From positions 4,960,001 to 5,024,000 of the forward strand of contig JAYWIR010000003.1 in NCBI GenBank assembly GCA_036172245.1: a stretch of DNA of 64,000 nucleotides. The letters run 5' to 3'. Source of the stretch: Raillietiella orientalis (taxonomy: Eukaryota). Made by a program: the position numbers and the translations under genes. The notes beneath the pieces are model-generated. The model did not search any database. It saw nothing but the letters and a program-made list of their open reading frames with translations, and was not told the DNA's origin. Shown here in pieces: positions 6,841 through 32,400 of the stretch. The first letter of the stretch is position 1. Each line of letters starts with the position of its first letter.

Positions 6841-6852
6841 TGTTCCGACTCG

Positions 6853-7211
6853 AGCACGCTCACCGCGGATGCGCCGAGTCAGCTGGACATCTTTCAGCAT
6901 GATGGTTACGCCCTTGGCATGGATAGCGCATAGATCGGTATCTTCAGAGGCCATCCAAATAGGGCTTCACTAGCTTCTGGCAGGGAGGATACTGAAAAGA
7001 TTTGGAAACGTAAGTCTGTTTTGAAATCTTGAGCTATTTCACGTACTAAACGTTGCAACTTGTGGATAAGCAGCTAAGCCCTCTTTGGGTAACGACGAAA
7101 CTCTCTCAAGGCAACAGTGCCTGGTCGGTAACGATTTTTAACAGTTCCTGTAGCTAAAGCACTCTTGAGAGTCGTCTTCGTTGCTAACTGCTTCCTCGGT
7201 GCCCTACCACC
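6853..7211 (-). pseudogene. H3: Histone H3 pseudogene (residues about 12-135)
   Basis: [69 protein letters not shown]...EASEA(frameshift)[31 protein letters not shown]. In-frame TAG at 7074-7076, small deletions, N-terminus missing and native stop codon lost. Confidence 0.95.
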
Positions 7212-7229
7212 AGGGCAAGCTGGTTGGTA

Positions 7230-7915: not shown

Positions 7916-7926
7916 GGTGGCAGTTG

Positions 7927-9040
7927 TTACAGAGCGATGCACCGACGGTTCCAGAGAATCCTGGATTCTCCTCTGACCAGGGATGAGAAACGGGCACGTT
8001 GGGAACCCTTGTAGCTGCAAGCGACTTGCGAAAAGCTTTCGATTTTCACCCGGGTTTCGCCGGGGTGTTTATTAAAAACTAAACTTTTACAAAGACGTTC
8101 TGTGGATGGACCAGTGCTCCAGCCACGCACGAAGAAACACAGAGCCTGCCGTCTCACCGGTTCGCAGACCGGTACGGTCCACCACGGCAGCAGGGGGAAG
8201 GGGGAATAAACAAAAAACTAAACAAAAAAGAAAATAAAACTTGGGAGGGTAAGGGAAGGGATCACTGTTGCTGGTGGGGCCGTTGCATCCTCTGCAGGAT
8301 GCCGGCAAGCTCTTTCTGCATTCCTGGATCCAGGTGGGGCCATCGCGACGCCCTCTTCAAAAATTCGGCGGCGTGCAGGATGGCACCCTTATCGCGAGGT
8401 CTCCCGTAGCCTTGCTCCAAGCGGCGACGATCCCGCGAAGGCAGCCCACGGCTGCTAACGAGGCCGCAGGCCGAAGGACGTCGGCAACGAAGAGGGCTTT
8501 CAATGTATCCCTGGGGGCGAAGAGCTTTCGACTGCGTCGACCAGGAGCACCTTCTGGAGCTCCAGGAACGCCTGGACTTTCCGGTCGTATTGTCGGTCTA
8601 TCGACGCTTCATGCTTGTCAGTATTTCTTTCAGCGGCCGGCACGTGTACGGTGTGCCTGTTCGCAGCGGTATCAGGCAGTGAAGCTCTTCAGCGTGTTCT
8701 TTGAGTTGGTGCTGAGCATAGAGGGAGACTCTGGCAAACCTACCCAGCTAATGCCCGGGCATGTCTGCCGTGTAGGCAGACATGCTGGCTCCAGTACGTG
8801 CGACGTGGGCCAAATGGCCGCACTAAATCCGCTTGATAATCCCCTTGGGCAGGTATATCGAGTTAGCGTACCGTTGGGGACTTCTACGTTGAAGAAAAAT
8901 GGTCCGACCATCTCCAAAAAGTGGAGATGGCACTCAGTCCGTTCTAAACGGCAAGTTTTACTTGCAGGAACGGGCCGCGGTGTGTAGCGCGTTTGCGGCT
9001 CCCCTCTTCTGCCCTCTGCTTTTTGTTTGCCCCCTCCCAC
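7927..9040 (-). mobile_element. Possible retroelement gag/ORF1-like relic lying antisense between LINE fragments
   Basis: Broken minus-strand frames with a Cys/His cluster (CRVSLYAQHQLKEHAEELH) and a downstream FLRAWLEHW stretch reminiscent of the DIRS pre-RT region. Family not identifiable by eye. Confidence 0.3.
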
Positions 9041-9420
9041 CCAACATCAAGAAAAGAACCGAGCACCTTCTGAGGAAAACTCTCTGTGGCACCGGGAGGT
9101 CTCGAATTCGGTTAAAAGACTTGTGACTTGCGCGTTCCGTACAAGGATGGTGGACTGGGACTCCTTACGCTGGTGCAGATGACGGCTCCAAATTCAGTAG
9201 ACTCCCTTGCGGCGAAGTTTCGGACAACGCCTTGGTGCGCACCTACGCGCCTCCTCACCAGAAGAGCGACCGGCTGCGAAGGATGGGGGGTTTGCAACGT
9301 TGGACTGGAGTCCATCCACTGGAGTGGCAGTGGGTCTCTCTGACGCTGTTGTCCGACATGTTTCTGAGCCAAAAATCTCAAGAAGTCGAGGTAAAAGAGG
9401 CACAAGGGAGACAATCATAA
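9040..9420 (+). mobile_element. LINE post-RT fragment
   Basis: RVPYKDGGLGL (9128-9165) is the conserved P...GGLG motif that follows RT in L1/Tx1/RTE-type ORF2. Same strand as the 7230-7915 fragment. Confidence 0.6.
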
Positions 9421-9599
9421 AGTAAAGAAATACAGAAGTAGTTTGGGAGGAATCTTCACGCACTGTCACCTCGTGACCTCTTGAAGTCTGCCGCTTTGTT
9501 TCGGAATGGGCAAAGGTGAGCGGTCAGGTTCCTGATATCCTACGGCACGTAGAATGGCCACATGGAACTAGTCCTATAAGAAAACGTATGTTTGAGGTA

Positions 9600-11779: not shown

Positions 11780-12058
11780 ATGGCCTTCGGCCTTAACCAA
11801 AAAGTGTTAAATCCAGTGCCACCAATAAAAGGCAGTTTTCCTCTTGACCACAAAGGGCAGTGTAGGTTGGAAATGCTCAGGTATTTAGTGTGTTTACGGC
11901 AGCAAGAAAATTTGCACAATGAGTGTCGAAAATTGGCCCAGTTGTACTTGGAGTGTCGAATGAATAATAATCTGATGGAAAAGGAAACGTTATCGAAATT
12001 GGGATACCCAGATATGGATTCTGCTGATAAAAGTGCCATTAGTGATGATCAAAAATGA
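11780..12058 (+). CDS. COX19: Cytochrome c oxidase assembly protein COX19 (twin CX9C), 92 aa, intronless
   Basis: MAFGLNQKVLNPVPPIKGSFPLDHKGQCRLEMLRYLVC...NECRKLAQLYLECRMNNNLMEKETLSKLGY contains the diagnostic PP.KGSFPLDH motif, two CX9C motifs and CRM..NLM...LG. Confidence 0.95.
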   Translation: MAFGLNQKVLNPVPPIKGSFPLDHKGQCRLEMLRYLVCLRQQENLHNECRKLAQLYLECRMNNNLMEKETLSKLGYPDMDSADKSAISDDQK

Positions 12059-13942
12059 ACCCAAAATGTGGTGCATTCCCGAGCTCATCAACTTATGAAT
12101 TTCACTTGGGTTATATTGCCAAAGGGTTTGCTGAGCATCAACACCAAGCGTTCATCCGAAAATAAAAAATCATACGTCTTAAGAAAATCTTGTAATTTAA
12201 GCAAGTTTACGATCCCGAATTTTTAGTAGTTTCAAATGATAATTGGTGTGGTTTGATGTTTGTGTTCAATAAAACAGCCGTGTTACTGGATTTCACAATG
12301 TGAAGATATGTAAGGTCCATATGTGTCTTTACAGGGTAGATGGAAAGCTCGAGTGGCTTTATTAGTTTAATCGCATGAATGAGTGATCCATAGCACAACT
12401 GAAAGCATGGAAACGTGTGAAACTTGTGTGTTATTGGGATAACCATCAGTATCAGTAAAAATACAGCTCTTAGCAATGAAAGGAATGTGCACTGTTTTAT
12501 TCAAATTTGAAAAACGGTTTTATAAAGTTGTTTTCTGAAAAACTATTAGATTAAACTTTAAGTATCCATCTGAACAATGTTCATAAAAATCCTAATAAGG
12601 TATTTCAGGCATTTCACTTAAAATCATGTTTTGTGCACTGAGTGCTTCAGTATTCCAACATGTTTAGCAGTGCACTTGTATCATATGAAAAGCATCATTT
12701 GTCCAGCATTCCTGTTCAGATGATAATTTTTAAATTGCCATTGTGTAGTTGATCCCTTTGCTGCCATATTGTGAACTAGTAGAAAGTGTAGTGAAGTTTC
12801 AAGAACATATGCTTTCCCAATGAGATATTTCAAATATCCAGAAATAAGTATGTACATGGAAAACGGCAATTTCTCTACTAATTAAGGGTTAGGAATAAGT
12901 TATCTGCATAACAGTAGTAAAGCTAAATACGTTCACTCATGTGTGATTGAAAGTTAATAGAAAAGTTCAAAGTGCCAAATTTAATTTTGGAACCTCAACA
13001 AAATTATTGTTGAGGTTCGAAGTTATGTCGTTCTAAAGAGTGAAGTTTCTATGCAATCATATCTAGGGGACCAAAACAAGATCAGAAAAATAAAAATCAT
13101 AAGGAATACACTCCACAATTTCTGTAGTCCTAATCAAGGATAGCACAGCAATGCAGTTACCCCCAATAGGGAAGCAGTGGTTCCACAACTAAGCTCAAAT
13201 AACCAGGTATAACCAAGTTCTTAATTCGGTTAGAAGAGGCAAGAAAACATATTGCTCGAGGAAAGTTATTTTGCAACGTGCCACAATAACGTGTTTTCTG
13301 CCAAACTTGGTGGACTGTCTGGATGGGCAAAAATTCATTAGGTTGCAAAATTGTCTCATTCATTTCACGTTCAGCCCCGGTGTTCTCCCCGCGAACAAAC
13401 CGATTGCATTCGGAATTTCGGTCGCGAGAAGTAGTCAACGGCAGCTGTGCACTCTTTTGCCGCAGGGATTTCGGGATTCACCGCAGACCTGCCGCAGCAT
13501 CCACCACACGGCGCCCGCGGAGGCACGTCGTTTCCCGGAAGGGACGTCTCTCGCATGCGGTTCGCCAGGATGCTCGCGCGTCCCGAAGATCGGGAGCGTG
13601 CAACTTTGGGGAACCACGGAACAGTCCGTCAGGTAAGAGGTTGGGGTGCCCAAGCACTCAGCCGTTTGCTGTCGAGAGCGCCGTGGTCAACCACTCGTAG
13701 CGCTCATCTCCGTGGCTTCCCACGGAGACCGTTGCCACGCGACCCGCTGCAGGGTTCCTTGACCCAAGGCCTCTGCAAGCATCATCTGCGTGGGCGCCTC
13801 CCCTCCCTTTCCCCCCCCCCCTTCCTCATCACACCTCCGTCATCTCTGGCACTCCTGCCTGCCGCCGCACTGGGCTGAGCGCTTCTTCAGCAGCCGCCCT
13901 GCCGGTGCTCATAACCGGTTCGACTGTCGGGAGAGCGCCAGC

Positions 13943-13970
13943 GTGTGTGTGTGTGTGTCTGTGTGTGTGT
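13943..13970. repeat. (GT)n microsatellite
   Basis: gtgtgtgtgtgtgtgtctgtgtgtgtgt read directly. Confidence 0.9.
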
Positions 13971-14981
13971 ACACTTCCAGGAAATTCCGTGGCGCATTTC
14001 CTATTCCGCACACGGTGCCGTATCTCACTTAGGTAGTTCATTATGCCAAGTTACGGCGGGCTTCCAGCGACACAGAGGGGCAGGTTTTGGCCGGAAGCAA
14101 ACAAACTCATCCTCCTTTGTTTACTTAATGATGCATGAGATGCAATCATAAGGCGATATCAATTGCGACAGCTCCTTTCCATTTCTTCCTGTTTTTTGAT
14201 CCATGCGAAAGCAATGTGGCTGCTGGTGTTTATCCAAGCAGCCAGACTCCGGAGTGAGCAGGCACGCATCAATATTTGCTTCTACGAAAAGTGGGCTTCG
14301 CAACTTTCCGTTCCTCCCAAATTTCTATGGCTACCGACGGCATGGCGTTAACTTTTTTGCGTATTCTTGGGGGCTCCGTCGCCTCGGGACTTCTTTCCCC
14401 CCCCCCCCCCATCGAATTTGCAAGACCCCCGGGCATCTGAAATTGGCGCGGTTTTCAGGAAAAACGGGTCGCACTCCCGAAGGTGGTAGGGTCTCCTTTG
14501 TTCCGTGTTCCTGTTGTGGGAGTCCCGAACTCTGCCGCAGAACTCTGCTGGAGACGCGGTCTTCTTGGGTTTACGACGTCCGTTTCCGTTTCGGCCGACT
14601 GCTCCCCTCCGTCCAGTCAAGCTGCAAAGAAAATCGCTTCCTCCAAAGGGATCCGTGGGACGGACGAAGGCCGAACGACAGGGCCTCGAGGGTGGAGGGA
14701 TGACCCGCAGGCGCTTCAACAAGTAACGTACTCTTCGGGTCCCCATTTCTTTACGCATCCGTCAGAGGGCAGGGAGCGGCACCGGAATCTTCTTCCTTGC
14801 TCCTTCCCCAGCTGAATCCCGGCAACACGAAGTGTTCCGGGTCTGACCCGAAAGGTAGCCGCGAGCCTCCCCTGCGGACTCCATGCCTGGCGCCCTCGCG
14901 ACGGGAATCCAAAGCGGGGAAGGCGGCAACGCGATCAAAGCGGTTCGCCTCGCCGAACGGTCTCTGCCAGGATGCGTTTCG

Positions 14982-15011
14982 CGCACCTTCCGAGAGCTCT
15001 CGGAAGGTGCG
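14982..15011. repeat. Perfect 30-bp palindrome
   Basis: cgcaccttccgagagctctcggaaggtgcg equals its own reverse complement. Confidence 0.95.
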
Positions 15012-15105
15012 TTTGCGCCTCTCCGTTCCGCAGAGGTCTCCGAACTGCTGCTGCTTTTTTCCCGTCCGCGAGACGACCGCGAGGCCGCAACTCGACCAAG
15101 CAGGG

Positions 15106-16805
15106 GCGCACAGGGCTGCAAAGGACTCGGGGCGGACGGGATAGCCGAGCTGCGCAGCACGGCCGCGCGATGCGGAGGGGGGGAAGGGAGGATGGGGGTG
15201 CCCCATGGCGCTCGCAAAGGTGTTGCCTTTCGCGACGAATCTTTCTTTCCTCCGATTGTCCAGAGAGTGTCCAGTGTGTGCCCCAAGTCGGAACACCTGG
15301 CAGGCCTGAGCTTTCAATAGCTCCTGCGGCCGCCCTCTTCTCATGCCAAGGTCGCGTTCGGTCACTGAGCAGCGCGGAAGCCTCGACCATGCCGGAGTAT
15401 CCTGAGCGACCGCGCCGGGCACGGCCGCGCGCCTCCGCGACTGGCCGGACTGATCGGGCGTTTCCCCGTTCGCTGCCGTCGGACTTTTGCTCCGGCGAGC
15501 GGCAGTCCTGCGAGTTTCCCGACGCCCGCTGCGGCGGCTTCCTGGCGAGAGTCTTGCTAAACCGATTCTGTCCACGTGAACAGAATTTTCCCTGCTGAAG
15601 CGCATGCGAGTGCCCATCGCAGGCGCGTCTTTTCCTGTTCTCAGGAAGGACGTTCCTCCGAAATTCTGACCACTCGTTTTGGACAGCAGGTTCGTGGCAT
15701 CTTTGGTGGCCGCGAGAAGGGACAGCGAAGGCGGCAGCAGATCCAGGGGGAGGTCTCTCCATACTTCGGGGCGGAGGACCCTTCTTAAAAGATCTTCTCA
15801 GAGATCTTCCTGGAAGATCTCTGAGAAGATCTTTTAAGAATCCTTCGTGAGGACACATCCGAGTCTTTTCTTTTGTGGTGGGATGTCGCAGACGAAGAGT
15901 GGGATGGACTTTGCTGGAAGCGTGGACCACGTGGATGGAGTCCACGCGGCCAACGCTTCCCGACAGTCAGAAGGCAAGAAGAGCTGCCCTCTGGCTGTAG
16001 GGAAGGGTCCTTTGACTCGATGCAGCTCCTCCCATGGAAGCAGCTGGGCGTGCGTGGAGGGGTGAGCTACGTGGTGTGTCCAGGGCGAGTCCTTGGGCGC
16101 GGAAGAGGCTCTTCTTTTCCAAGACCCCCTTCTTCCTTTCTCCCTTTCCCCTTGTTTGCTTGCCGGTTCCCGGAGCACCCCTGCGCAACGGGGGACTTCT
16201 CCGGAGTCGCGGCCCCTCCCGCGAGAGCTCGCCGTGTCACCCTCTCCCGCTTCTCGCCCATGCGAGGTGGGGGGCAGATTTTTCAGGAGTGGTCGCTCGA
16301 CTGATGACACTCTCTCTCCGCTCGGCATGCACCTGGAGCGGGTCAGCAGTAGCCGAAGGGGAAGACGGGGGGTGGGGGCTTCTCGATGAGTGGATCTTCG
16401 GGAGACGGGACTTTTCGCGTGCGGAAGGGTCCGTGGGTTTTGCGGGGGTCTCCGTGACTTGATCTTCCAGGCGGAAAAGTCGAGAGCACTGGGATCGCAG
16501 AGCGCGCCTCCTTTGTCTTCATCCCTGCCGATCCTCGGACACGCCGAGCCGGAAAGAATGGCTGCGGGCAGACAAGTCGTTCGTGGGCGCTCCTCCTCTC
16601 CTGCGGCGACTTCTTCCTCCTGTCGCAAGGAGGCGACACCGGAAGGGGGTCCTCCAAAGGAGGAAGTAAGAGGTGGGGATCCTTTCCTCATGGTCCATTC
16701 GCAGCATCTGTCCGGCGCCTCCTCCCTTCCCCCCTCCGCATCGCACGGCCGTGCTGCGCACCTCGGCTTTCCGGTCTGCCACGAGTCCTTGGCAGCCCTG
16801 TGCGC
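15106..16805. repeat. Inverted repeat pair of about 86 bp (15106-15192 and 16720-16805)
   Basis: gcgcacagggctgcaaaggactcgggg...gatgcggagggggggaagggagga aligns with the reverse complement of 16720-16805, with about 7 substitutions and a poly-G length difference. Confidence 0.85.
15782..15840. repeat. 59-bp palindrome (29-bp perfect arms, 1-nt spacer)
   Basis: ttcttaaaagatcttctcagagatcttcc-t-ggaagatctctgagaagatcttttaagaa. Confidence 0.95.
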
Positions 16806-17155
16806 CTTGCGGGGACAGGACGCACAGGGCTGGGTGACCCACCCTTCAGCGGGGTTCTCCCTGAGGCACGGAAGAGGATCCACACCGCCGCTCCTAGGAC
16901 CTCGGTAGGCTTCCTGCAGGCGGTGGTTCCGAGAGGGGGGGGAGTAGGGCCTGGGAAGCGAAGTCGGCTCGCCTCCCTCCTCCGGAAGTGGGAGAGGGCA
17001 GGCGTTGGGCGGCTTGCCGTAGTCCCGTCTCGACGCCCAGAAGGACGGGCAGCAGCGCTCACGCTAACGAAGGAACCGCCGGCCTCGCACGCTTTCGTAC
17101 GCGCGCGCTGCGTTGCTCCTGCACCGGCCGCACTACGGGAGTGGAGACGCCCGCC

Positions 17156-17199
17156 ATTTTTCATCCCCCAGGAGCCTGGGCTCCTGGGGGATGAAAAAT
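17156..17199. repeat. 44-bp palindrome (21-bp perfect arms, 2-nt spacer)
   Basis: atttttcatcccccaggagcc-tg-ggctcctgggggatgaaaaat. Confidence 0.95.
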
Positions 17200-17930
17200 C
17201 GCCCCAGAGGTGAGGAGAGGAGTATTCCGTGAACTAAAGAGGGGGGGGGGGAGGAGGAGGAGAGAAGGCAGGAGCTCCGCGCTCCCGTCTGGGCGCAGGG
17301 TGATGCGAGCTCCGTCCCCTCCCCCTTCCGCCTGCGGGACCGAGGGCGCGCCCTTCGTCGCTGTTCCTCCTTCCAGAGATGCGCGGCGCGTCCCCCGGAA
17401 GAGTAAGACGACGTTCCGCCTCCCAGGGAGGACAAGGAGTCGGCATTCCTGCCGATTCTGCGCACCGCCAGGAAGACCTGGGAGGAGGGGAGTGGGGAGG
17501 TGTGGTGCGGGACCTCCTGGGCCACCATCTCCGAGAGGGACCCCCCAAGTAGATCTCGGGCTGGCTTGCGAGGAAGGGTAGTTTGGGCGGCAAAGCGCGT
17601 TCCTTCTGAGCAGTTACCCCGGATGGTTCTCTTCCCCCTCCTCCCGAATACCCCCTTCCTTCCCTGGAGAGGGCTGCTTTTGCTGCGGGCGCTGACCGCG
17701 CCTCGTCCTCAGACCCCTCTTGCCTTTCCTTCCGCTGAAATCGCGGCGCGGAAACGGAAGCCCCTGCCCGCGAGCGTCCTTGGGAATCGACAGGGGCGGC
17801 GGCCCCTCCCTGCCCCGGCGCCGGCGCCGGACCTCCCGGGCGCTCTCGGAGGCGCGTCCTGCCGGGCATGCGCCGGGCGGGCGCGCCTCCCCCTTGGAGT
17901 CCCCTCGGCCGCCTCGTCCACGCAGAGAGG

Positions 17931-18059
17931 ATGCTGGCCGCGTGCTTTGCTGTGCTATCGCTGTCGCTCCTGGCGACCGGTTTCTCCCCCGTCGCCCAGG
18001 GATACGGGAGTCTCCGCGGGTACGGTGGAAGGTGGCGGACCGTCGGTCCAGAAGCACAG
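17931..18059 (+). CDS. Allatostatin-C-family prepropeptide, putative coding exon 1 (signal peptide)
   Basis: MLAACFAVLSLSLLATGFSPVAQG-YGSLRGYGGRWRTVGPEAQ has a hydrophobic core and an A-x-G cleavage site. It ends at a phase-0 CAG|GTAAC donor, and a cgcag acceptor lies 5 nt upstream of the ATG. Confidence 0.7.
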
Positions 18060-20348
18060 GTAACAACGCGGGCTTGGGGCTGGGAGGGCTGGAGGGAACA
18101 GCGGAAGGATCCGAGTCGCTCCCACCCACCCACTCTATGAGAGGTCGCCGCGCGCAGGCTCCTCGCCCTTCCGCCCGGGGGAGCACCGCCACCGCCTCCG
18201 TTCGGCCTTTTCCTTCCTCTCTCGGTCGCCCTTCCTCGGGAGGAATCCCCGCGGCCCTGGGGAGAGGAGGGCCCGCTTCTCCTCATGGGAGGCGACCAGG
18301 GACCCCGGCATGCGTATTCCTCGCGCGGGTGAGGATCCCCTCATTCCGGACCGGCGCACGTCCCCCAGCCCCTTCGACCGCCGCGCCATCTCCGCGGAGT
18401 AGTGATGGTGACTGTGAGGAGCACCCGCGACCATGGAAACGGCAGTTCCTAGAAACGCGCATCAGTGCCCGCCCCGCCTCGCCGATGCCCGCGGTTTGTA
18501 GGCGACGAAAGCTAGAAGAGCTTCCTCCTCCTCTTTCTCTTCCTCTTGTCGTCTCCCGTCTCATCGCCGCGTACGGTCCTGCTGACCTCACGGATGCCGC
18601 GCGCTCCCACGGAGAGCTGCTGGAGCGACCGCACCACCTTCGCCGCTGTGCGCCACACCAGGCGCAGGCGATCTGCCTCCTCCCCGTTGTCGCCCACTCT
18701 GCGTAAGGGCGGACGTGTCTCCCACAGGGATGCGCGCCATCTGAGAGATCGCGGTGCAACAATGGCTTGCGTGCCTCCCAGTGGCTGGCGTGAGACTTTG
18801 AGCGTCGCGCCGGACGCTAGATGGGACTGTTTCACGGTCTCCCGTGCTGCGGAGTGCTCCCAGCTGCTGGAGCTCTCCCCACGTCCGTCCGCTCGGGTTT
18901 CGGGTGCACCCTGCAGGTCTGTTTGTTCCCTTCCCTTCCCCGTGCACCTCTCTTTCCCTGCTTCGGTCCGCAGGTGGTGCCCCCGCACGCGCGCGGGAGG
19001 AGAGAAAAGAGAGGAGGAGAAACACGAAGATCGTCCTGGATGCACCGATGGCGGCGACGGCGGCCGTCGCCTCCGCTGCTGCTGCAGAGTGGGAGCGCCG
19101 TCGTTGCTCCTGTAATTTCCGCGCTTCCCATAAAGCGCTCGTAACTTCGGAGCGGATGAGCTGGATCGTCCTGGATCGTCGTGCTCCTGCCCTTCTGCAG
19201 TGCAGTGGTTGCCATGGCGATCCCGAAAACGAGGTGCCCATCGTCCGCTACCTAGTCATGGCGCGCTCATCGGCCGGCCACAGCAGCAAGAGCCCCTCGT
19301 CGCCGTTGGGACGGGGGAGAGGAGAGCTACTGCCTGGTTCAGGGAAGGATCGAGGAGATTCAAGGCGAGGAGGACGAAGAGGAAGAAAGGAACACGTCTC
19401 TCGTTCGTACGGTCGCCTCCGTCGCCCAGAGCGACGGGAAGAACGTCGGAGGATGGCGGAGATGGGCTTCCCGCTGCTCTACCCTATGAAGTCTCCAGAG
19501 AGGAATCCTTCGCAGCCTCCACAGGGACTTTCGGAACAACAAGAAGAAATTTTTTTTCCCTTCCCCTCCGCCCACGCTTATTTTCCCATTCCTCACCCGC
19601 CATGCGTCCGCCTCCCCCGCGGCTGGTACCACACTTCGCTCTCACCGCCACCGCTGCCTCCTCTTCCCGGGGACACTCGCCCGCACGCCCTCCCGGGAAG
19701 CCGATCTTTCATCGTTTCCCTGATTGGGCACGCCCGGGTCTAATTTTTCCTGATTAAGGGCGGCTCGGAGGGCGCGCACGGGGGGTAGGGAAGGGAGGAG
19801 GAGGAGGAAGAGGGGAGGGGAAGACGTTACGTGGCCGCCAGAGCGGGGCGCTCGGATCGATCAATTTGTCAGACCCCTCGCCCCCTGCGGCGAAGAGGGC
19901 GCGGAGTGCTCGTCAGCCTTCCGCGACTGGCGGCGGGAAGGCGAGAAGCCCAACGCTCAACGCGGCGGGCGACCCCACGCCTGACCCCTCAGAGGTCGGC
20001 CGGTTGCCACCGTCGGCCGGAGCAGGAAGCCCGTAAGCAGGAAGAGGCGTGGAAGGTCGTGGGTCCCCTCCCTCGTCCAACTAGGGGTCGTCTTCCTGTC
20101 TGCACGGACGGCCGCTACACCACATGCAGGCAAGGGAGGGCAGGTGAGGCGGAAGCATCCGTAGTGCAGCGGGGGTTGAGACACGGTCTCCTGCCTCCCT
20201 GACGACGGAACATCAAGGGCAAGACGCGGGGTTGAGTGGGGGAAGGCGGCGGTGACCGTGGCAACTGACTCTCCCCTGCAGGATGGGGAGATGAGGAGGT
20301 CTCGCACCCGCTCCTTCCACTTCTCCTTCCTTCCTCGCACCCCCGCGT

Positions 20349-23140
20349 GTGCCGCGGACGCTCGCGGGAGTGCGTGGTGACGCTGCCATCCCCCTTTCCT
20401 CGGCGAGGTTTCTCTCGCGCGCCCTCTCACCCCTGGTCAGGCCCCGGAGCGTTCCCCTAGACGGAAGGCGCGGTTCGTTGTTGGCCGACCTGTTGGACGC
20501 GCGTGCGAGGGATCAGGCAGTCAGCCCCCCTGCAACCCGGAAAGGGGAGGGTGTCTAAGGTTACGCCGCTTCCTCGCGACGGCATGGCGGCACGGAGAGA
20601 ATCCGTCCGCCTCCAGCATCCCACTCGGAGCCAAGACGTGGTGTCGGTGCGGAGGTCTTCCGCCGCTGGACCCGAGTCCAACCTGAGGGGGTTCCAAAGG
20701 TGCGGCGGTGGTCACCTGGCTGCCCTCTGGTGCCACGCCGCCGACTCGGATGAGGCGGCCAGCGCTCCTCCTCCCCTGAAGGGACGTGCGTGGCGGGGGG
20801 GGGGGTTGGCTGAGACTCCTCCTCGTTGTCTCTTCCTTCTTCTTCCCATTTTTTTTCCCGCTTCCTCCTCCGAGAGCGAGGGTGAGGAAAGGGGTGGGAG
20901 AGACAGAGGCATCGGCGAAGGAGGAGAACCGATCAGCAGCCTCATCTCCTTCCGATATCTTCCGGAAACGTCCCTCTTCCCCGGGGAAGCGGTCCGGCTT
21001 CGGCTGTGGCGGCGTCACGTGTCGGGGAGGGAAGGGTAGGGAGAGCTGCCGCCTCCCTGCCCTCCGGAAGCAGAGAAGGAGTGATCAGGGGCGTCCGTGG
21101 CAATCCGGAAGCCCCTCTGGGCGGGGAGCGCGCGGATCAGTGCCCTGCATTTCCGGGAGTGAGGTGGGTCGGTCGGAGGTGTTTCCCGCGTCTCCTCCTT
21201 CGCTCCCCCCCGCGCTCCCGTTCGAATGCGGAGCGGGCGGCGGGGTGCCTGAGAGTTTCCTCCCCGGGGGAGGGGGGGATCCTTGCGCTGTGAGGAGGCC
21301 TCTCCTTGCTCTCCGGTCCGGAATGCTCGGGAGGCGGGTCTGGGAGGTAGGCGGCTGCCCGCGGGCGCGTGAGGTGGCGCTTCGCGCCGGTCGCCCGTGT
21401 GACGACGGTGGCTCTCTTGTTGCAGCTGCCGATCCGCAGGGCAGCCGACCGGACAAGTGAGGAGGAGGAGGAGCTGTACCAGGACATGCTGGCGTCCATC
21501 TACTCGGCCCTGAAGACCCCCCCGGGGAAGGCTGCGCTCGCCGACGCACGGGCGAGCAGATCTCTGGCCAGAGGCGGCGACAACGCGCCGCCGCCGGCGC
21601 CCAAGGTAGAGAGGCGCGGAAGAGGGAGGGAAAAGGGGAGAGGACCGGAAGAGGGCTCGGCGTCTTCTGGCTCCGATCCCTCGCCGGGCACGCTCCAGGG
21701 AGGGGAGGACGGACCTGGGGTGCGCGACGGGAGAGGCTTCTGCGATCGTTCTCGAGGCGACCGCGGCGCCACGGACGAGAGGAGCGGTCGGAATCCTGCC
21801 CCCCGTCCCTTCGGAATGAGGAAGGACAAGGGGCATGCTGGCCACCCTGAGAGCGTCTCTCCCGCGAGAAGTATTCCTCAGAGAGGCATTTGCACCACTT
21901 CGAGGAGATGGCGCTTCCGGCGGCTGCGGACACATCCCGCCGCTGCCACTCCTTCCTTCCCGTCTCCCGAGAGCGTCCCGCGAGAAAGGGAGGAACCCTC
22001 CCCCACCGCCCCTGCTGCCTCGCTTGCGGCGTCTTCCTCCGTAGATCGTGCTCCCGGGAGGAGTTCGGGAGAGCTCGTGGGGTCGCTTGGGGGATGGAAT
22101 GAGGGCTTGCACGCTCCTTCTCTTCCCCCTCCCCCGAGGTCACCTCCGCCTTCCCTCGCCGCGCGCACTCCCGCCCCTTTCCACTGCCTAGCCCGCCTTC
22201 TTGTGGGGCGCCCGCCGGACGCGACTGTTGCTGCCGCTCCCGGGGGAGGCGTGGATCCCGCTGCGCGCGAGAGCCCATATGGACTGGAAGGGGGATCCAC
22301 CTGATAGCTTTGCCGGCTACCGCGGGATTTTCCCAGGGAGTCCCGGGGAGATGCGGCGGGAGCCATCCGTCCGGTCCTCGGCGTCCGCAGGGGTCGTCCG
22401 GCGGCCAATGAACGGGCGACGCGGGCGCAGATCGATGGAACCTTTCCGGGGCGGCGGGGAAAGGGTGAGGGGGAAGGAGTGTCCCCGAATCCGAAGGAGG
22501 ACGAGGCTCCAAGCCGTGCCTGCGGGAACGCTCCCTCTCCTCTCTTTCCCCCCCCCCCCCGCTTCCATCAGCTGCGCGTCCAGGTGAGGGGTGGCTGCCA
22601 GGAAGCGGAGGGCGTCGAGAGGGAGGGGACAGAGGCCCACTCTCTCATCGCCCCTCCAGGGAAGGCTGGCCGGCAGCCCCCGACATGAAGGGGCATTCCC
22701 CGCCGCAGGAGGGCAAGAAAGTGGGGAGGCGGGGGAACCTCGCGCCCGTCCCTTGCTCCTCTCCTCCCTTACATCCCCTAGCATTTGCGTTTGTGCCGCG
22801 TGCCCTAGCGGGAGTGAGAGGTAACGCTACCACCCCCTTTCCTTGGCTGAGACTCGCTCTTGCATCCTCTTCTCTGCCCCTGACCAGGACCCAGAGCGAG
22901 TCCCTAGGGGAAAGGCGCAGAACGTTGTTGCCCGACCGGTCGGGCGCGTGTGCGAGGGGCCAGCCCGTCAGCCCCCCTGCGACCCGGAAAGGTGGTGGTG
23001 ATCAAGGTCAAGCCGCTCGTTCGCTATGGCACGGCGGCACAGAGGATCCGTCCGCCTCCAGCATCCCTCTAGGAGTCCGGTGGTGGTGTCGGGGCAGGGC
23101 GCTTGGAGGACCTTCGCCTGCAGCCGCTGGACCCGAATCC
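20349..23140. repeat. Diverged direct repeat of about 340 bp (20349-20679 and 22793-23140) flanking the neuropeptide exon 2
   Basis: Collinear shared blocks include gtcagcccccctgc.acccggaaagg, atccgtccgcctccagcatccc and gccgctggacccga.tcc. Confidence 0.8.
21426..21605 (+). CDS. Allatostatin-C-family prepropeptide, putative exon 2 (pro-region)
   Basis: ctcttgttgcag|CTG...CCCAAG|gtagag, 180 nt, phase 0-0. LPIRRAADRTSEEEEELYQDMLASIYSALKTPP... has an RR site, an acidic stretch and an amphipathic helix as in neuropeptide pro-regions. Confidence 0.6.
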
Positions 23141-26100
23141 TCACTCCTGTGCGATGCGCTCGGGGGAGAAGGGAGTGTGTCTCCCGCTGCTCCTCGAGGT
23201 CACTTGTCGGACACAGGCACGGACCACGTTCCACGGATCGTGGGGCAGGAGAACCTCCTCCCCCTTCCTCCTCCCTTCCGGTAGGGGGCACGTGGCTCTC
23301 CCCACAGGGAAGGCCGATCCAGAGGGGACGTTCGAGGCCCTGAACCCATCCCGCCCGGCCTGAGACCTCCACGCCGAGTCCTGCTGCAACAGGAGCTGGA
23401 GGGTGAGGGGAGACAGACAGTCATTCACGGAGAGGCGAGGGGGGAGCGACCCCTGACAGTCACCGGGGCGGCGGTCGCCTCTGCGGAAGTCACGCCTCGC
23501 CCGCGCGCGACTTCCGGTGGATGCCGGAGGCGGCTCGCGACCGGTGCCGAGGCGGCGGAACTGGCGCCTGTGGCGGGGTGGGAGTGAAGCCTCGTCGCGG
23601 CCCTATCGCCAGATCTCTCGCAACAGAAGAGGGCGCGGTCCGCGTGGATCGGGACGACGCCGTTGGTGGTGGAGGAAGTGGTCGCGGCGTGGCTGAAGCG
23701 TGGGAAGGGTAAGGGGGAAGGAGGAGGGGAGCCGTCACTAGGGAACACGAGGTCCAGTGATGGACCAGACGCGCCGCGAGCCCAAAGCGGAGGCGGTCGA
23801 CGAGCCCGCGCTTCAAGCAGGCTGAGGGTTCCTCTGCGCGTTCAGGACCGGGAAAGGGGACGAGGGGAGGGCTCATTCTTCGCGCGGGTAAGTGGGCCGC
23901 CAGCCCGCGCATCTAGGTGGCCCTCCGCCGCGCAGCTTCCTTCGTGGAGGAGCTGCGCCTAGCCCCCGTCCTCCCGGAGAGAGGCCCGACGGCTGTGGGG
24001 ACGAAGGAGAGGAAATCACTCGAGGAAGTGCGCGGGCGCGCGAAGAGAGGGGGGGGGGAGAAGGAAACCACCTTCGGCAGTTCTCTGTGGGACGAGAGAA
24101 CGTGATCGGCACCACGTGCGAGAGGGGGCGCGCCGATCGCGACCTCTACCTCGGCCGCCGCAGGTGCCGGACGGAACGGCGACGCCCGGAGCAACGGGGC
24201 GAAGCAAGGGAGGGGAGCAGGGATTGGATCCGGCAATCCCGGAGAGTTGCTTTCGGGGACGTGGGAGCGGGACGCGTGGGGACGCCAGAAGCGGGAGCTA
24301 ATTGATATTCATGAACCCCCGTCCGAGATCGGGAGCCAATCAAGAACTGGGAAGCCTCGCGGATTTAATTCCAGGAACTCTTTCCTGTCCGCGGCGACGG
24401 GATTGATGTTCCTGGAAGACTTGAGCGACCTCGCCTCCCGGAAGGGTACCCCCGCGTGTCCGTGAGAAGGCGCGGACAGATGGGCCACTGCCGGGAGTAG
24501 TGCAGGCAGATGGGGAACCGGGAGCCCTCCGTCCCGGGAACTAAGACTCGGCGTCTTCTTGCCCCTCTCCTTCCCTCTTCCCTCGGGAGCGGGGGTCCTG
24601 CTAAAGTCTTTTTCCCCTCCTTTCCGCGGACGGGACCGCAGGCGCGCTCGGAAGAGGGCGTGGAGGGGATGGGTTAGGTTGGTGCGACCCATCGCAAGCA
24701 CGGCTCCTGTCCCCCACCACCCTTCCGACCTGGAGCGAGGCGTCCGTCCCCGGCGGTAAGGAGGGAAACCCAGTGGCGCCCTCCTCCCTCCGGGAGTAAG
24801 TCCAGCGGACGCTTCCGCTCCCCTCCTCCTTGCCTTTTCCTCGCTCTCTCCCACGGGAGACGGGAGGAATCACTGTCCTCGGTCCCCTCCCTACCTCTCT
24901 CCTCGTTTCTTGGGGTGCGCGCGCGACGCGGCGTCCTCCCTTGAGGGCGTGTCGGCTGGCGACGGCTCTTCCTTCCGTTCTCGAGCCTTCCCGTCTCCCG
25001 CGCAGCGGCGGAGAGTGGGAAGCTGCGGCAACTGATGAGTGGCGCGGCAGCCTGCATATACAATGTGGGCGCAGTGGCAGAAAGAAGTGGAGAAAAGGAG
25101 TGCGCCCGATCCAGATGAGGTCCGGTCGTCGACGCCCAGTCAGGGAGAGGGATGCGCAGGGATCAAAGGAGCCATGGAGGGAAGGAGATGTGGAAACGGA
25201 GGGAGCAGCCCCGCCGATACTTGGACTCTGAGCAAGGAGGACGGACCTTAGCGGAAGAAGCCGGAGACGAGAGGCGCCCCGCACCCACCGGGGGCGGGGG
25301 AAAACAAGAAAAACACCAAGCGACCCAGTCCAGGCGTATGCCCAAGCACGTCCTCTGCCCCCCCTTTTTTTTTCTTTTTGCTTCCTTCCCTGAAGGCGAC
25401 CTCCCCCCCCCTCTTTGGCGACTGCGAGGAGGCCGATTGCGTCCCTCGAGCCTCGGTGAGGGCTGAAAGGAAGTAGCAACAATGCGCCGGTGATTGGGAG
25501 GGATCGGGAGGCGTTTTCCAAGAGGGAGTCAGAAGGACGTGGGATCCTTTTCCGGGGGGCGCGATTGGGCAACGTTCCGTTGCTGTGGGGGACTGCTGGG
25601 AAGACAAAAAAAAAAAAGATCACCGCCTCCTCCGTTGAGTTTTCCCCCCTCCTTCCTTTTTTTTCAGCTTCGCCGCGGCATTGTCTTTTGCGAAAACTGG
25701 GAAAGGGGGAGGGGAATTGGACGCTCCGGCGACCATTCGCTCCCACGCTCTCGGGTGCACCGACCATGCGGGAGCCACAAGAGGAAAGCAGCACGGCGCC
25801 CTCATCGAGCGCCTTACTCATCAGCAGTGTCTGATGATAACGATCATGGTGGTATTGGTGATAGTGGCGCTGGCGAGCCAACCATCAGCAGATCCCCCCT
25901 GTGAGGGAGTTGGGTGTGGGCTCGTAACTGCTACCGCTTCAGCTGGACGCGCCACCGGCGCACTTCCGGTAGATGCGCCGCAATGACAACCTGGAAGCGA
26001 AGCTTCTGCCTTTCCGCCTTTCTCTCCTCCCGCACTCCCCTTCCGTAGGGCTTCCTTTCCGTCCCGGTCCCCTGGTTCAAGCAGGTTCGGGCATCGGCAG

Positions 26101-28377
26101 CGCCGCCGCCGGAAGAACCCCGCGTCGCTTGTACGCAGAGGAGCTCAGCCTCGCTCCTTTGCGTGCGGCGCGCCAACGCGTCCAGGGGGATCAGGAGGTT
26201 CCCGATGGCACGGTGTGGTCCACAGCCATCTGACCCCTTGACGCTGGAATACTGGGTTTCGCGCTTTCGGGAAATGAGCAAGGTCAATTCTCTTCTACGG
26301 CGGCTTCTACCGTGGTGCTGAGCAGCTTCCGGGGCGCGGTTGCGTGTGACAACTGGAGCTCGAGATGGTGGGAACGGTCCGAAGCATCCAAGTCGGTCCA
26401 AGACAGGAGGAAGGGTCGAAGACCAGGGCGATCTTTGGAGGCATCGCCCCGCCGTAACGTGACGTTCCGACTGGCGACGGCGGAGGCGTCGGAAGGGTGT
26501 GGACGTAAAAGTGGAAGGAGACTTCGGTGACGAAAGGGATGGCGTTCGACGTTCGCAGAAACGCGCACGCGCAGCACGCCTTTGGGGAGCCTTCCTGGAG
26601 CAAGTTCAACGGGGGACCCCCTTGCGAATTCCGCCTCCCGGAGCTCGGCTGCTCCCTTGTGCTCTGGGAGAAAACGGAGGATGGGCTGGCGCCGGGCTCC
26701 AAGCTCGCCGGATGCTGGCTGCTTGGCAGAGATGGGATGGCCCGTCCCTGTCGCTCGTCAAACTCGCCCAAGAACAAGACGCTGGAATGGGCAGCGCTAT
26801 AAGCGCTTTAGCCTGCAAGTGGAAGCGAGGATCTGCACAGAATGCACGTGCACCCAAAAGAATTCAGATGTACTCACTTTCACGTATATAAAATGACCTC
26901 GCAACTTACACAAAAAATAACTTTTTACATGGGATGATCGCACAATTCATTTATATCTTTTCTGTATTACAATCCTGACGTGTATGTGTGCTTTTCATAC
27001 GCTTGTGCCTGCGTGCGCTCCAACAGCCCTGCCTGTGGCATCAGCCTGTTAGCACACTCTATCTACCCAGTCTATTTACATCGTGCCTATCTAGTTACAT
27101 ATCGAAGAGAGATATCCATGGCGCCTCTCCTGTGTGTATTATATAGTGGATGGACAGACAAGCCACACAGAGAATAGCATCCTCCCACTCATACCCACAC
27201 GCATCAGTTAGCTTTCCACTCGTAAATAGACATGGGTGGAGAGTGGAGCCATCTGTGCAAGCAAGCAGGTGTGTTGCTGAAAAAAGTAGGTGTGGGGGTC
27301 GTTTGCGGGACGGGGAGCTCACTGCATGTGTCGGTGACGAACGGCTTCTGCGAGCTATCAACGATCTCTACGTCACGTGCTAACGGGGCCCGACAGCCAT
27401 TCCTCCATGTCGCGCGCGGAAGGAGCTTTCAGCCGGCAGACGGTTCCGACTGTAGAGAGACGCCTTGTTTTCCGGTCTCGGTTCGCCGCCGGCGCTCTTA
27501 AAGGCTCCACCCGGCTGCCACGCTCCCGTCCCCTGGACAACGTTGCTTCCACCTCCGTGGACCGCGACTGCGGAGGAATAGCGAAACCGGTGACGAATTC
27601 CTCGAGCCAGAGGGCGACGTCTCTCAAGCTCTCGGAAGCCTGCGAGCATCAGAAGCGCCCGTAGCTCATCGCCCTCCTCCCAGGCGCCTCGTACTGCCCC
27701 TGCCAATGCCGCCTCCGGGAACAGCCTCTGGCGGACGACCCGCAATTGAGGGCGACGCGCGAGCCGCAGCAGCGCTGATCCAATTCGCATGGCTGCCACG
27801 TGAGCGCACACCACCGAGCCGGACATCTCTGCATTGACCATGTGAGGCTTTCCCGGACACTGAGCGCGGTCTGCATTGGGAGACTCGGAGTCCTGGATCC
27901 TGGATCCCCTTCTCCACACAAGCAGCAAATCGGCTGAAGGAATCCGCCGTAGACATCTTCCGTCGTACAGATCCTCCTTAACACGTAGCCGCAGTGCGCC
28001 AACGCCCACTACTGGAACCGCCGCTTCTTAGCCTCAGCGGCGCCACGAACAGCGCGAACGCCAGCCGAGAATAGAAATCGTTTCCACGCCACCTCCGGGT
28101 CACGCGCAAAGTCAGAGGAGCGAGAGAAACGGAACAGTCAGGGTCTGTCCGGGAGGAAGATTCTTGTAGGTGGACGGGTGCACGAGCGTCCAAGTGTATG
28201 GACCAAAAGACCACGGAGAGCCATCAGTAAAGGCATATTGGAGACTGAAAAAGCCCGAAAAAGTGGCTCCGCCCGAAGAGTACGGGGACAGGACGTTGAT
28301 GTCTCCCTCGATCTTCAGAGGCGCGGACGGAGTCCCGTCGGCGCAGTGCCGGTCCTAGGACCCTCTCTTCAGGCTTC

Positions 28378-29210
28378 AGCTAGTGGGCAGTCCTCTTGCG
28401 AAAGCTGTTTCGTGTCTGCGGTCGATTCTCTTGAGTGTCTGCTAGCCACCAGTACCAATCATCCCGATCTCCCCTGCTTCGTTCTCGACGACTGCTCGCT
28501 CCCGGAGCAAAACGTTTCCCTCCGAGCACGTTCTGGGTTGCAAGATCGCCGCGTGTTTCCCATCTCCTCCCCCCTCCTCTCTCCCTCAAAATTGGAGCTG
28601 CACCTAGTGATGTGGAAAGTGACGTCACGATCCTTACTTTCCACCCCTTGAAGACCGTGTGTTTCTGGGCGCTCCAGGATCGCTGAACAACCATCGCCCA
28701 TTGAGCGAGCCAGGAGCTTCCCTTGCCGGTGCTGTAGGAGAAGCTCCTGCAGCACCGGATGCGGGTTTCTGGACTGCCACATGCACGGAGCGCCCATTTC
28801 CGCCGGGAGGGTCTACCCCCACGCAGCATTCCTTCCCTTTGCTACCAGAAGCGGGGACTCTTCCCTGTCTGGAAGGACGAAGGACCACCTCCGGATTTAA
28901 TCTTGGTTCTTGAGTCCTCCATCAGAGCAAGCCATCTCTCGCAACGGACAGTAGGTACTGCTAGCTGAGTTGCTCCAGCAGTTCCGTCCATCGCGAGGGG
29001 TCCTCCTTAGATAGCGGGCAGTCCGCGTGCGAAGGACCGTTTCTTTGTGTCTGCGGTCGATTTCCCCGAGTGCCGGAAGGGGAGGCTAGCCACCAGGAGC
29101 CCGTGCGATTCGGCCCTTCGGAAAGAGGAGAGGAGGCGGTCTCCCTCTGCTCCTCTGATTGCAGTGTTGCGAAGCGAGGTCAGAAGCCTCCTGCCCTCCG
29201 CCCTCGATCA
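28378..29210. repeat. Degenerate direct repeat (about 28378-28650 and 29008-29210) in intron 2
   Basis: Shared blocks tag.gggcagtcc, gtgtctgcggtcgatt and gctagccaccag occur in the same order. Confidence 0.6.
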
Positions 29211-29297
29211 GGGGACGTCAATTCTTCAGGGGTTCTCTCCCTTACGTCGACGGCCGCCTTTCCGGAACCTCTGCAGCTGACGCTTCTGTGCTTCCAG

Positions 29298-29411
29298 GAG
29301 CCCTACGGAATAGCCAAATATAGCCTCAGCAACCGGAGGCTGCGGGACAACCGGAAGGATCTGAGGCCGCAGTTCTGGAAGTGCTACTTCAACGCTCTCT
29401 CGTGCTTCTGA
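29298..29411 (+). CDS. AstCC: Allatostatin C / allatostatin double C-like neuropeptide, last exon encoding the mature peptide
   Basis: cttctgtgcttccag|EPYGIAKYSLSNRRLRDNRK-DLRPQFWKCYFNALSCF*: dibasic RR and RK sites, then W.CYFNA.SCF with a C-x6-C ring, the AstC/AstCC signature. Confidence 0.88.
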   Translation, partial: EPYGIAKYSLSNRRLRDNRKDLRPQFWKCYFNALSCF

Positions 29412-29474
29412 CGGGGCCGGCTCTGGCCGCTGCTGCCGGCGGAAGCTGCGGACGGATGCCTCCGGGAGTGACAC

Positions 29475-29480
29475 AATAAA
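29475..29480 (+). promoter_or_regulatory. Candidate polyadenylation signal for the neuropeptide gene
   Basis: AATAAA 63 nt after the stop codon. Confidence 0.5.
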
Positions 29481-32400
29481 GAGGCGATTTCCTCATATGC
29501 TGCCATAAGACAACGACGGGATTCGTACGGGTGCTCGTTTGCGGCGCTCTCCTCAGGAGGAAGCGCAGCAGAATTCGGGAAAGGGAGGAGAGGAGGGAAG
29601 AGATAAATCACCTCCTGGCGAATAGCCATAAAACTCCCAGGAGGAAGTAGAGGAGGAAGATGCACACATACGCCCTCTGTCCTGCACACTCTCCGGGATC
29701 TCAGCATTCGGAGTACGCCCGGACTGTGCTGAGGAGGGAAAGTGGAAGGCTCTGCAACTATCCATTCAGGGGGACAGGAAAGCGGGACGCTGCGGGGTAG
29801 AGACAGTGAGCGGACGAGATGCCAATGACGGAGTCCCTTTCTCCTTCCTCGTCCTTTTCTCCACCCCATCTCCCCATACAGGCTGCGGCAAACGTATCTA
29901 CAGAAACTCCTCTAGAAGGATCCTAAGAGTTGTTCGAAAACTTCTATCATAGCGGGTCCTCTCTACTGGAGACAAGCATCCCTTATCCCTTATTTCTACC
30001 CGAATTCTGGTCTCCGAAAAGTACGGCAGTGCTGAGATGCGTGGCTATGGAAACCTCGAAAGCGAAGCGGATCGAGACCTCGGGCTATGATGCTTTGCCA
30101 ACGCAAAGGAAACAGAAACTTGGGGAACAATGCTTGAACACTGGAAGAGGGGAACACCCGAGGACACGCGTCTCCCGAAAAGGAAGGAGAAGATCCTTGT
30201 AAGATCCCTCCTGTTTTCCAGGTTTCGGAGAGACTCTGTTCTCTGCTCGACCGAGGCACGTTTGTACTCTTTGAGACCGTCGTGGCGATGAGCGGGCGGG
30301 ATTCTGGCAGTCTCGTCGCCTGCGAATTTCCTTTTTCATCTGATCCGCCCTAGAGACGGAAGGCTCCCATCCGAAAACCCCTCCTAGGAAAGAGAGACGA
30401 CGATCTTCGACGGAAGTGGGTGGCACGCATGCCCACCGCAGTGGAGCGGTGGCTACACTGAACGGAGGGGATCGAGGGAAGGAACCTTCGGGCGTTTCCT
30501 CCCCAGCTCTTCGCCGGATTGCGTGAGCACAACAGTCTCATGGGTTGTGCCCAGCACTTCCCACGTGGTGGTGGCGCACCACCATGGGGAGCCTTGTGCT
30601 TCTTTCTCTGGGCATTGAATTCCTGCTTTGTGGCAGCCGAGGGGAGGAAGTAGCTCCTTCCTGTGCTTGTGGGTCGGGGAAACGGCAGGGGTTACGTGGC
30701 TAGTCGCTGAACAGCATAGTGGGGGAGAGTCACCATTCGTAAACAACAGAACCTGGCAACCGAAGGAAGAGACTGGAGCGGGGTGCGGACACATCAGGAG
30801 ATCGCGGCAAAGTAAAGAGGAAGACGAATGCGGGAGCCCTCTCCAGGATGTCCTCCCAAATATCCCGGAAGGCGTGAGGATGCTGAGGAGCTTAAGTTGC
30901 CTGGTGAGTAGGCCTCATCGTGTGACCCTGCTGACAGGAGAATGGTGACTTAAAGCACGAGCCGACTTGGGGCACGCACAAGCGGCAGAGTCGCAGCAGA
31001 ATCAAGTGCTCCAGTATTTCGCGAAAAACGAGGTGCTTACTGGTCTCCAGGAACGACAGCACCGGATGCATACTGGCAACGGATGCAACACGCGTACAGC
31101 GATGATGCATCACAGGAAAGGAAAGAGGCGACTGGGATTCCCGGCCAGTGGTGAAGCAGAGTCCGCTAGTATGGCAAAGGGGGAGCAGAGGACATCGCAA
31201 AAGATTGGCTTCAAACAGGTGCGTGACGAAGTGGTGATCTCGAGTCGAGGTCTTCAATCCGTTCTTACGGAGCTCTGAGGAACTTTTTCGAGGTCGAAGA
31301 ATCCGGCTCAATAACCATGCTTACGGAGACTAGACACCACCATTACCGAAAGAAAAAAAAGGATAACACGCTGATGTTGACACGGAAACGCGCTATCTCG
31401 AATGCTGGGCATTATGGGGCTGGCAACTCAGCACGGCAAGGCTCGATAGATTTTCGACGGTACAACTCCACGGTGGGTAGTCCAGATGCAACGGGACTTC
31501 TAGAGGGTAGTCTGGATGCCGTGGGAACTGGCAGGAAGCATGTCTCGTTTAGAGCACCTCGACTTCAGAAGGGAAACTTACGGAGGAATGCGAGCAGATT
31601 ACCAGAGATGTGAGAAGTTCGCACTCTTAGGGAGGGAGAACTGGGAGGACACTTCGTTCTGGAGACCTTCACAAAAATGACAGAGAACCGGTCCGTGATG
31701 AAACAGTGTCAATTCCGGACCTTGGCAACAGACTTGATTCATTGTCGACGCTGGGGTTCCTTCCCCTCGAAAAAGTTTTCCTCCCAGTGAAGCCAGCGAG
31801 GGTCCTCAGAAAAGCATTTTCATCCAGCTCGGACTCTCGACAAGCAAGGTAGGGGCGCGAAGGAGCACGGACGGCATAGTCCCATGGGAGGAGGAGAACA
31901 GAAAGAATTCTGTTTCTTGAGCAGCTGCCTAGAAGGAGCACCTGATCTGCCCTTGTGTTCTCAATCCTGTTCTCACGCACTACCCTCTGTCTTCTACCTC
32001 TGTCCTTCTCTGTCCTCTTCCTTCAGTCTAGGGAGAAGGAGGTGAAGCAGGAAGACAGCAGGAAGGAGGACAGCACGAAGAAGTAGCAAAATGTACGAGC
32101 ACATTTCTTCTTCCTTCCTTTCTTCTGGGAGATGGAACATCTGGACTCTGAAGGGTATCTTTCTGACAACCGAAAGAATCTTTGCCCTCTCAAAATCCCC
32201 CAGGGAGGGCCCATTCCACTCCAGAAGAAGACAGGCTGAAGTCCTATTTGTTGCCGCTTTCTGCAAAGCTCTTCACTCCAGTGATACATTCTCATTCTCT
32301 TGTGGACGATGCGAAAGCATTCGACTTAGCATTCCTTCTGAGTTTTTCGGGAATTCAGAGAACGCGGAAAGTCCAGAGAACTGTAAGGTCATTAAATATG

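Follow-up and report, generated by a model that had tools for sequence, protein, structure and literature searches.

Precursors of the allatostatin C (AstC) family carry a single C-terminal peptide with two cysteines six residues apart (PMC8786951, PMC9048919). Reference AstC, AstCC and AstCCC peptides are given in PMC6008092 and PMC7179676. In the bee, AstCC activates the AstC receptor with an EC50 of 15.4 nM, and this receptor lowers cAMP (PMC4704819); activation of the AstC receptor by AstCC has likewise been described in Tribolium (PMC4237046). The disulfide matters for peptide potency in Aplysia (PMC8786951), and the lobster heart is modulated by AstC-family peptides (PMC6008092). As arthropods commonly have three paralogues acting on shared receptors, the role of AstCC is hard to isolate. 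Within a 64,000-nt window of the Raillietiella orientalis assembly (the whole stretch of DNA analyzed here), we find what we consider, with a probability of about 0.7, to be a functional AstC-family neuropeptide gene, most likely an AstCC orthologue, of a crustacean-grade arthropod. AstC-family genes are expected in arthropods, and the gene adds a mildly divergent member to a well-known family.

Three coding exons on the forward strand, all open in frame 0, add up to a precursor of 140 aa (43 + 60 + 37 aa), the length proposed by the first-pass annotation of this DNA. Its exon coordinates also held: each internal boundary carries GT or AG, and both junctions are in phase 0. Exon 1 (17931..18059; 129 nt, 43 aa) has a signal-peptide-like, hydrophobic N-terminus (hydropathy of 2.1 to 2.7 in windows from residues 1 to 8, without a basic n-region) with a putative cleavage site at about residue 24, followed by a short Gly/Arg-rich stretch. 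Exon 2 (21426..21605; 180 nt, 60 aa) contains an RR site at 21435-21440, an acidic run, a predicted amphipathic helix (about 21474-21515; hydrophobic moment, 0.46), and a Pro/Ala-rich tail, and thus agrees with the acidic helical pro-region described previously. The two predicted GT-AG introns (18060..21425 and 21606..29297) are 3,366 and 7,692 nt long, matching the 3.4 and 7.7 kb given earlier. Both are in phase 0, whereas ecdysozoan ASTC genes are described as having one phase-0 and one phase-2 intron (PMC9048919). Codon score and alignment with relatives support exon 3 (29298..29411; 114 nt, 37 aa plus TGA), in which the expected RR (29334-29339) and RK (29352-29357) sites and the peptide-then-stop end were found in place. 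The precursor terminates in one peptide copy with two cysteines six residues apart, ending FWKCYFNALSCF-stop, and the stop codon directly after the terminal F leaves no amide signal. A disulfide would close the Cys-x6-Cys ring encoded at 29382-29405. The peptide lies 23 residues behind RR and 17 behind RK. The 17-mer originally put forward as the product, DLRPQFWKCYFNALSCF (29358..29408, free acid), is indeed the shortest predicted mature form, but it is one of several, as RR, RxxR, and RK sites occur within nine residues. A polyadenylation signal (AATAAA, 29475..29480) lies 64 nt past the stop and is the sole AATAAA or ATTAAA in 29412-31500.

Five untranslated bases (17926..17930, forward strand) separate the ATG from a candidate AG acceptor at 17925/17926 that passes the pyrimidine/YAG filter. 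A noncoding upstream exon is therefore likely and would bring the probable total to four exons; the earlier three-exon description stands for the coding part. The stretch past the predicted signal cleavage site (18003-18032, forward strand) ends in Gly-Arg. It is conceivable, as pure speculation, that it yields a short amidated precursor-related peptide.

The ring motif C-x-F-N-[AP]-hydrophobic-[ST]-C-F had a single match with up to two mismatches in the window (0.01 expected from 100 shuffles) and a single exact match in the whole 210-Mb, 491-contig assembly, in which the reversed-pattern control had none. A search of metagenome contigs by pattern gave 82 stretches, of which 34 distinct peptides remained once a dibasic site no more than 25 residues away and either a stop or a basic tail were demanded; the ring contains Ala in 19 of them and Pro in 15. 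Leu is absent from the aliphatic position of the ring in all 34, which bears out the description of the ALSCF end as unusual, and none has Lys directly before the first Cys. The FW preceding the ring is not unusual, F-W-R-C being present in 2 of the 34 distinct relatives. Six ring positions, including C-Y-F-N, are invariant in a 16-sequence alignment. Two metagenome matches to CYFNALSCF (L097 and L104) were dismissed as chance because their open frames extend only 3 and 0 codons upstream. The Ala-type rings at L046, L050, L064, L066, L077, L106, L109, and L113 follow N-termini without W-R before the Cys; such peptides possibly represent an additional lineage-specific AstC paralogue.

Standard searches contributed little. 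Pfam assigned no family to the three exons, and exon 3, extended by the three codons before it, drew no candidate in a word-based protein search. The sole match of exon 3 in a representative protein search, to a 1,979-aa repeat protein (residues 8-30), was judged to be due to chance. The exact peptide ending had no match in the full-text collection searched, which covers few subscription papers.

Over the last 14 residues, the mean BLOSUM62 score was 60.9 against AstCC-type peptides (n = 9), compared with 48.7 against AstC-type peptides (n = 13) and 47.7 against other Ala-type ends (n = 3). In the Atlas, the top cluster of exon 3 (0.90; 149 of 256 features) and that of an AstCC-type control (0.96) have the same length, size, and taxa; the third match of the control is named Allatostatin CC. 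Intron layout was compared across unannotated metagenome contigs, partly near-duplicates, with acceptors called heuristically. On this basis, a predicted phase-0 acceptor opens the last exon, 4 to 5 codons before the dibasic site, in 15 of the 17 AstCC-type loci (one is in phase 1 and one has no acceptor), and 4 of 6 loci have a phase-0 acceptor candidate for the helix exon four codons before KR or KK. Acceptors of non-AstCC loci are scattered where present, and 10 of 20 such loci have none within 330 nt of the ring. Taken together, the BLOSUM62 scores, intron layout, and Atlas cluster place the gene with confidence in the AstC family of arthropod precursors and make it probably a divergent AstCC orthologue, in agreement with the nonamidated AstCC-like peptide recognized in the first-pass annotation. 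We file it as a probable divergent rather than a typical AstCC because of the Leu in place of Val and because no 18- to 20-mer follows RR or KR.

The same assembly encodes a single, intact AstC-type receptor (L040, contig C46), which is consistent with the somatostatin-type GPCR anticipated as the target class. Somatostatin receptors are its best solved relatives, and it is 49 to 60% identical to 120 arthropod receptors among the matches listed, several of which are named allatostatin C receptor. It has no close paralogue, the next match within its own genome being only 34% identical. The TM7 motif searched for is carried by six receptors in the assembly, including L036, which is galanin-receptor-like by comparison with solved structures. 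Five intronless receptors (L036 on contig C12, L037 and L039 on C19, and L038 and L041 on C55) have an allatostatin-A/galanin-type look, and the two pairs on shared contigs suggest an apparent expansion compared with the single AstC receptor.

A model of exon 3 in complex with the receptor core scored 0.79, against 0.24 for the best of three controls; runs shared at least 78% of their contacts, and partner pLDDT was 55 or higher. The mark applied is reached by 51 of 78 solved but only 2 of 108 mismatched microbial pairs, a calibration that contains no peptides, and the pass may be driven by likeness to solved somatostatin-receptor complexes. The confident modelled interface comprises residues 21-37 of exon 3, exactly the 17-mer, and the lowest-error contacts are predicted for ring residues 29-35, the F-N-A-L-S face. 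Two receptor positions modelled against the ring Leu differ from the relatives listed: position 66 of the modelled chain is Asn here and Thr in 119 of 120, and at position 83 Phe replaces the Met found in 118 of 120. Changes are also seen at positions 243 and 260. Among these relatives, which are mostly insects, changes were not significantly enriched in the pocket (8 of 22 conserved interface positions versus 37 of 175 elsewhere; Fisher one-sided P = 0.095).

The window gene is apparently the only AstC-family gene in the 210-Mb assembly. The 464 kb surrounding the locus, which are free of gaps, contain no second one, and none was found when four relaxed patterns that require an intact C...CF or C-x-F-N were run across the genome (35, 12, 47, and 67 matches). 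Five matches of the 35-match pattern were judged from the matched bases alone, and for the 67-match pattern, reading in context covered the 22 further C-Y/A-F-N candidates selected and not the other 44 matches. The ring-like matches rejected in this genome were each missing a dibasic site, a stop codon, or the core of aromatic residue and Asn. The absence of paralogues may be an artefact of assembly or sensitivity.

Fourteen Chitin_bind_4 (cuticle-protein) matches mark the assembly as an arthropod genome. On a 9.2-kb mitochondrial contig (L196, G000:C282; GC skew, -0.62), cox1 is followed by trnL(taa), the latter detected only at a relaxed threshold; cox2, a frame of 221 codons, is directly followed by trnD; and trnK adjoins trnR. 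The cox2-trnD junction and the R-K neighborhood also occur in a pentastomid and a branchiuran (PMC12856591, PMC10999652), whereas the tRNA block around nad3 is ordered otherwise on this contig. On this gene order, the animal is probably an ichthyostracan-like crustacean. A vertebrate origin of the window, under which an AstC-type gene would have been remarkable, is rejected on the cuticle domains, the mitochondrial order, and the relatives of the receptor. The mitochondrial contig further contains a duplicated cox1-end/trnL stretch before cox2 (L196, 1692-2313) and a rearranged tRNA block, and the assembly has 54 matches to cox1, a sign of many nuclear copies of mitochondrial DNA.

About 30 kb from the peptide gene, the reverse strand carries exons of a SAM-domain gene (59227-60657; Pfam SAM_1/SAM_2 at 59227-59571), with more high-scoring frames at 59894-60283 and 60295-60657. 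In Drosophila, a SAM-domain gene (Samuel) lies near the AstC/AstCC pair; no relevant paper on synteny between AstC and such a gene turned up in a literature search. At the other end of the window, four exon-sized frames with Neuralized domains (1-998, reverse strand; NEURL4-like) lie in AT-rich DNA with short introns. An intronless 92-aa CHCH-domain gene (11780-12058, forward strand), which we take to be COX19-like, is 50 to 53% identical to two unnamed proteins. A short histone-fold fragment (6682-6966, reverse strand) matches Pfam Histone below the cut-off and lies among frames (about 4300-9500) that resemble, by eye, decayed pieces of non-LTR retroelements. Further repeats are a perfect 29-bp hairpin (15782-15840), an 83-nt inverted pair (15105-15187 with 16724-16806), and a diverged direct repeat of about 230 nt with one copy in each intron of the peptide gene (20430-20659 with 22877-23104). 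Across G000:C3:4760001-5224000, GC content per 10 kb ranges from about 0.33 to 0.66 and falls to 0.20 in the last 4 kb, an isochore-like pattern in which compact housekeeping genes occupy AT-rich blocks and long-intron genes occupy GC-rich blocks.

We infer that exons 1, 2, and 3 are spliced into one precursor, for which phase and codon scores provide support but not proof. In a synonymous-codon model trained on 1,745 codons from six receptor genes of the same genome, exons 1, 2, and 3 fell in the top 4%, 0.07%, and 0.45%, respectively, of same-length open stretches, a noisy score in that many noncoding stretches score equally high when no splice constraint is imposed. With the splice filters made for this analysis, which are simple consensus rules, exon 2 ranked first (9.9, runner-up 8.4) among 139 internal candidates lying downstream of the COX19-like gene and ahead of exon 3, and it is in phase 0 at both ends. 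Its first residues, x-x-x-RR-A-A, also resemble the start of the helix exon in AstCC loci. Of the 151 ATGs in 12060-29297, that of exon 1 is the sole signal-like start situated upstream of exon 2. It is nevertheless conceivable, though unlikely, that a true AstC-family exon 3 belongs to a different upstream structure, with exon 2 skipped, extra exons, or another exon 1 donor. Exon 1 has two additional phase-2 donor candidates (18019 and 18031), noncoding stretches can match exons in codon score, and three more signal-like ATGs lie within intron 2, but the codon scores of the latter are negative (-5.5 to -16.6). Profiles of the pro-region helix also failed to recognize exon 2, which was outside the top six of 1,556 window pieces; these profiles, built from 4 AstCC-type, 8 AstC-type, or all 12 helices, use short segments and have low power, and three of seven AstCC-type helices were missed by the extraction pattern and so fell outside the profile. 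That the gene is a decaying, unexpressed remnant, as its departures from otherwise fixed residues might suggest, is highly improbable: the three frames are intact, with a GC3 of 0.72 to 0.87 near that of the receptor genes of this genome (0.85), and the splice and poly(A) signals and the receptor are intact as well.

The subfamily assignment has its own competitors. The gene could instead descend from AstC (PISCF type) or AstCCC and have diverged so as to resemble AstCC. Four of the 19 Ala-type scan peptides have an N-terminus unlike that of AstCC; therefore, Ala in the ring does not by itself define AstCC. By eye, the exon 2 helix is no less similar to the helices of two Pro-type loci (L054 and L108) than to the AstCC helix, and a WK pair occurs in AstCCC (PMC6008092). 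We nevertheless consider this origin quite unlikely, as both score and identity favor AstCC. The W stands two residues before the Cys, as in AstCC, rather than three, as in AstCCC; the peptide has C-Y-F rather than C-A-F and no Gly-Lys amide signal; in beetles, the AstCCC coding sequence is split over two exons (PMC6585902); and half of the non-AstCC loci lack an acceptor near the ring (see above). A less remote alternative, possible although doubtful, is that the gene is an ordinary AstCC that is not alone, with AstC and AstCCC absent from the assembly or too diverged for patterns that depend on an intact C...CF or C-x-F-N. Three paralogues are common in arthropods (PMC6008092), which speaks for this alternative. 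Against it stand the empty results of the four relaxed genome-wide patterns, the single receptor, and the lack of a second gene in the 464 kb nearby, although the family reportedly arose by local triplication. A further idea is that FWK mimics the somatostatin/urotensin pharmacophore and that the peptide acts on receptors of a vertebrate host. The mitochondrial gene order suggests a parasitic clade, FWK/YWK is a chordate motif (PMC9048919), and bee AstCC above 10 μM raised cAMP in mock-transfected HEK293 cells, an effect that the authors suggest was possibly mediated by somatostatin receptors (PMC4704819). Such mimicry is very improbable here because FWK lies outside the ring, whereas WK is inside the disulfide loop in somatostatin-related peptides, and because it is one conservative change from the ordinary AstCC FWR. 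In addition, the lowest-error modelled contacts are those of ring residues 29-35 and not of FWK, the gene is single-copy, and the animal has its own receptor.

As a functional, probably divergent AstCC gene, the locus might operate as follows. The exons would be spliced, behind a noncoding exon, into the 140-aa precursor, which the signal peptide would direct into the secretory pathway. The two cysteines would close into a disulfide ring, and cleavage by convertases, either at RK or at one of the RR/RxxR sites close by, would release a free-acid peptide of 17 to 23 residues. Its ring face F-N-A-L-S could then enter the AstC receptor pocket. Judging from its bee counterpart, this receptor may couple to Gi/o and dampen target neurons, muscle, or endocrine cells. 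As no other family member was found, the window peptide is probably the sole ligand of this receptor in Raillietiella orientalis. AstCC elsewhere is often a low-level local signal. More tentatively, and with doubts outweighing our confidence, AstC and AstCCC may have been lost in a probably parasitic branchiuran/pentastomid-like lineage, leaving AstCC as the sole classically secreted ligand; the ring change from Val to Leu and the changes at receptor pocket positions 66 and 83 would then have arisen together as a lineage-private pair, because AstCC was freed from sharing a receptor.

The new element is that the system seems to have shrunk to a single ligand and a single receptor whose pocket is altered. 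If this state is real, AstCC alone can carry the whole system, and the lineage offers a natural test of ligand-pocket coevolution. The gene would also be among the earlier neuropeptide records for a crustacean group that has been little studied, for which our literature search found none, and a divergent receptor pocket is the type of feature used in seeking selective anti-parasite ligands.

Among described systems, AstCC is the closest. The window peptide shares with it the pattern aromatic-W-basic-C-Y-F-N-A-aliphatic-S-C-F as a single, C-terminal, nonamidated peptide, and the precursor length of 140 aa falls within the 108 to 172 aa given for Polyneoptera (PMC7179676). By heuristic calls, phase-0 introns precede both the helix exon and the peptide exon, as in AstCC-type loci. 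It differs by two conservative substitutions of core residues, K rather than R before the Cys and L rather than V in the ring, and it lacks the usual layout of RR followed by 19 residues (PMC7179676). The last exon starts 12 codons ahead of RR instead of 4 to 5, and the helix exon opens three codons ahead of RR instead of four. The conserved pro-region helix behind the dibasic site was not recognized by the low-power profile, its likeness being apparent by eye only. The predicted signal peptide looks classical, whereas some AstCC precursors have a signal anchor (PMC4237046), and no paralogue is apparent beside the gene. With AstC of the PISCF type, the peptide has in common ring size, C-Y-F-N, S-C-F, a free C-terminus, and receptor class; however, its ring lacks Pro, its N-terminus is not of the Q-x-R-Y/F-H-Q type, and its score is lower (48.7 versus 60.9). 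AstCCC shares F-N-A-aliphatic-S-C-F and the W-K pair before the ring but has C-A-F and an amide signal where the window peptide has C-Y-F and none (PMC7179676); the W here is one position nearer the Cys, and there are three coding exons rather than two (PMC6585902). Somatostatin, urotensin II, and the protostome SSRPs resemble the window peptide in being cyclic and C-terminal, in their related receptor class, and in the letters FWK. In the window peptide, however, WK precedes the first Cys and lies outside the loop, and its six-residue loop with Asn is the signature of AstC (PMC9048919).
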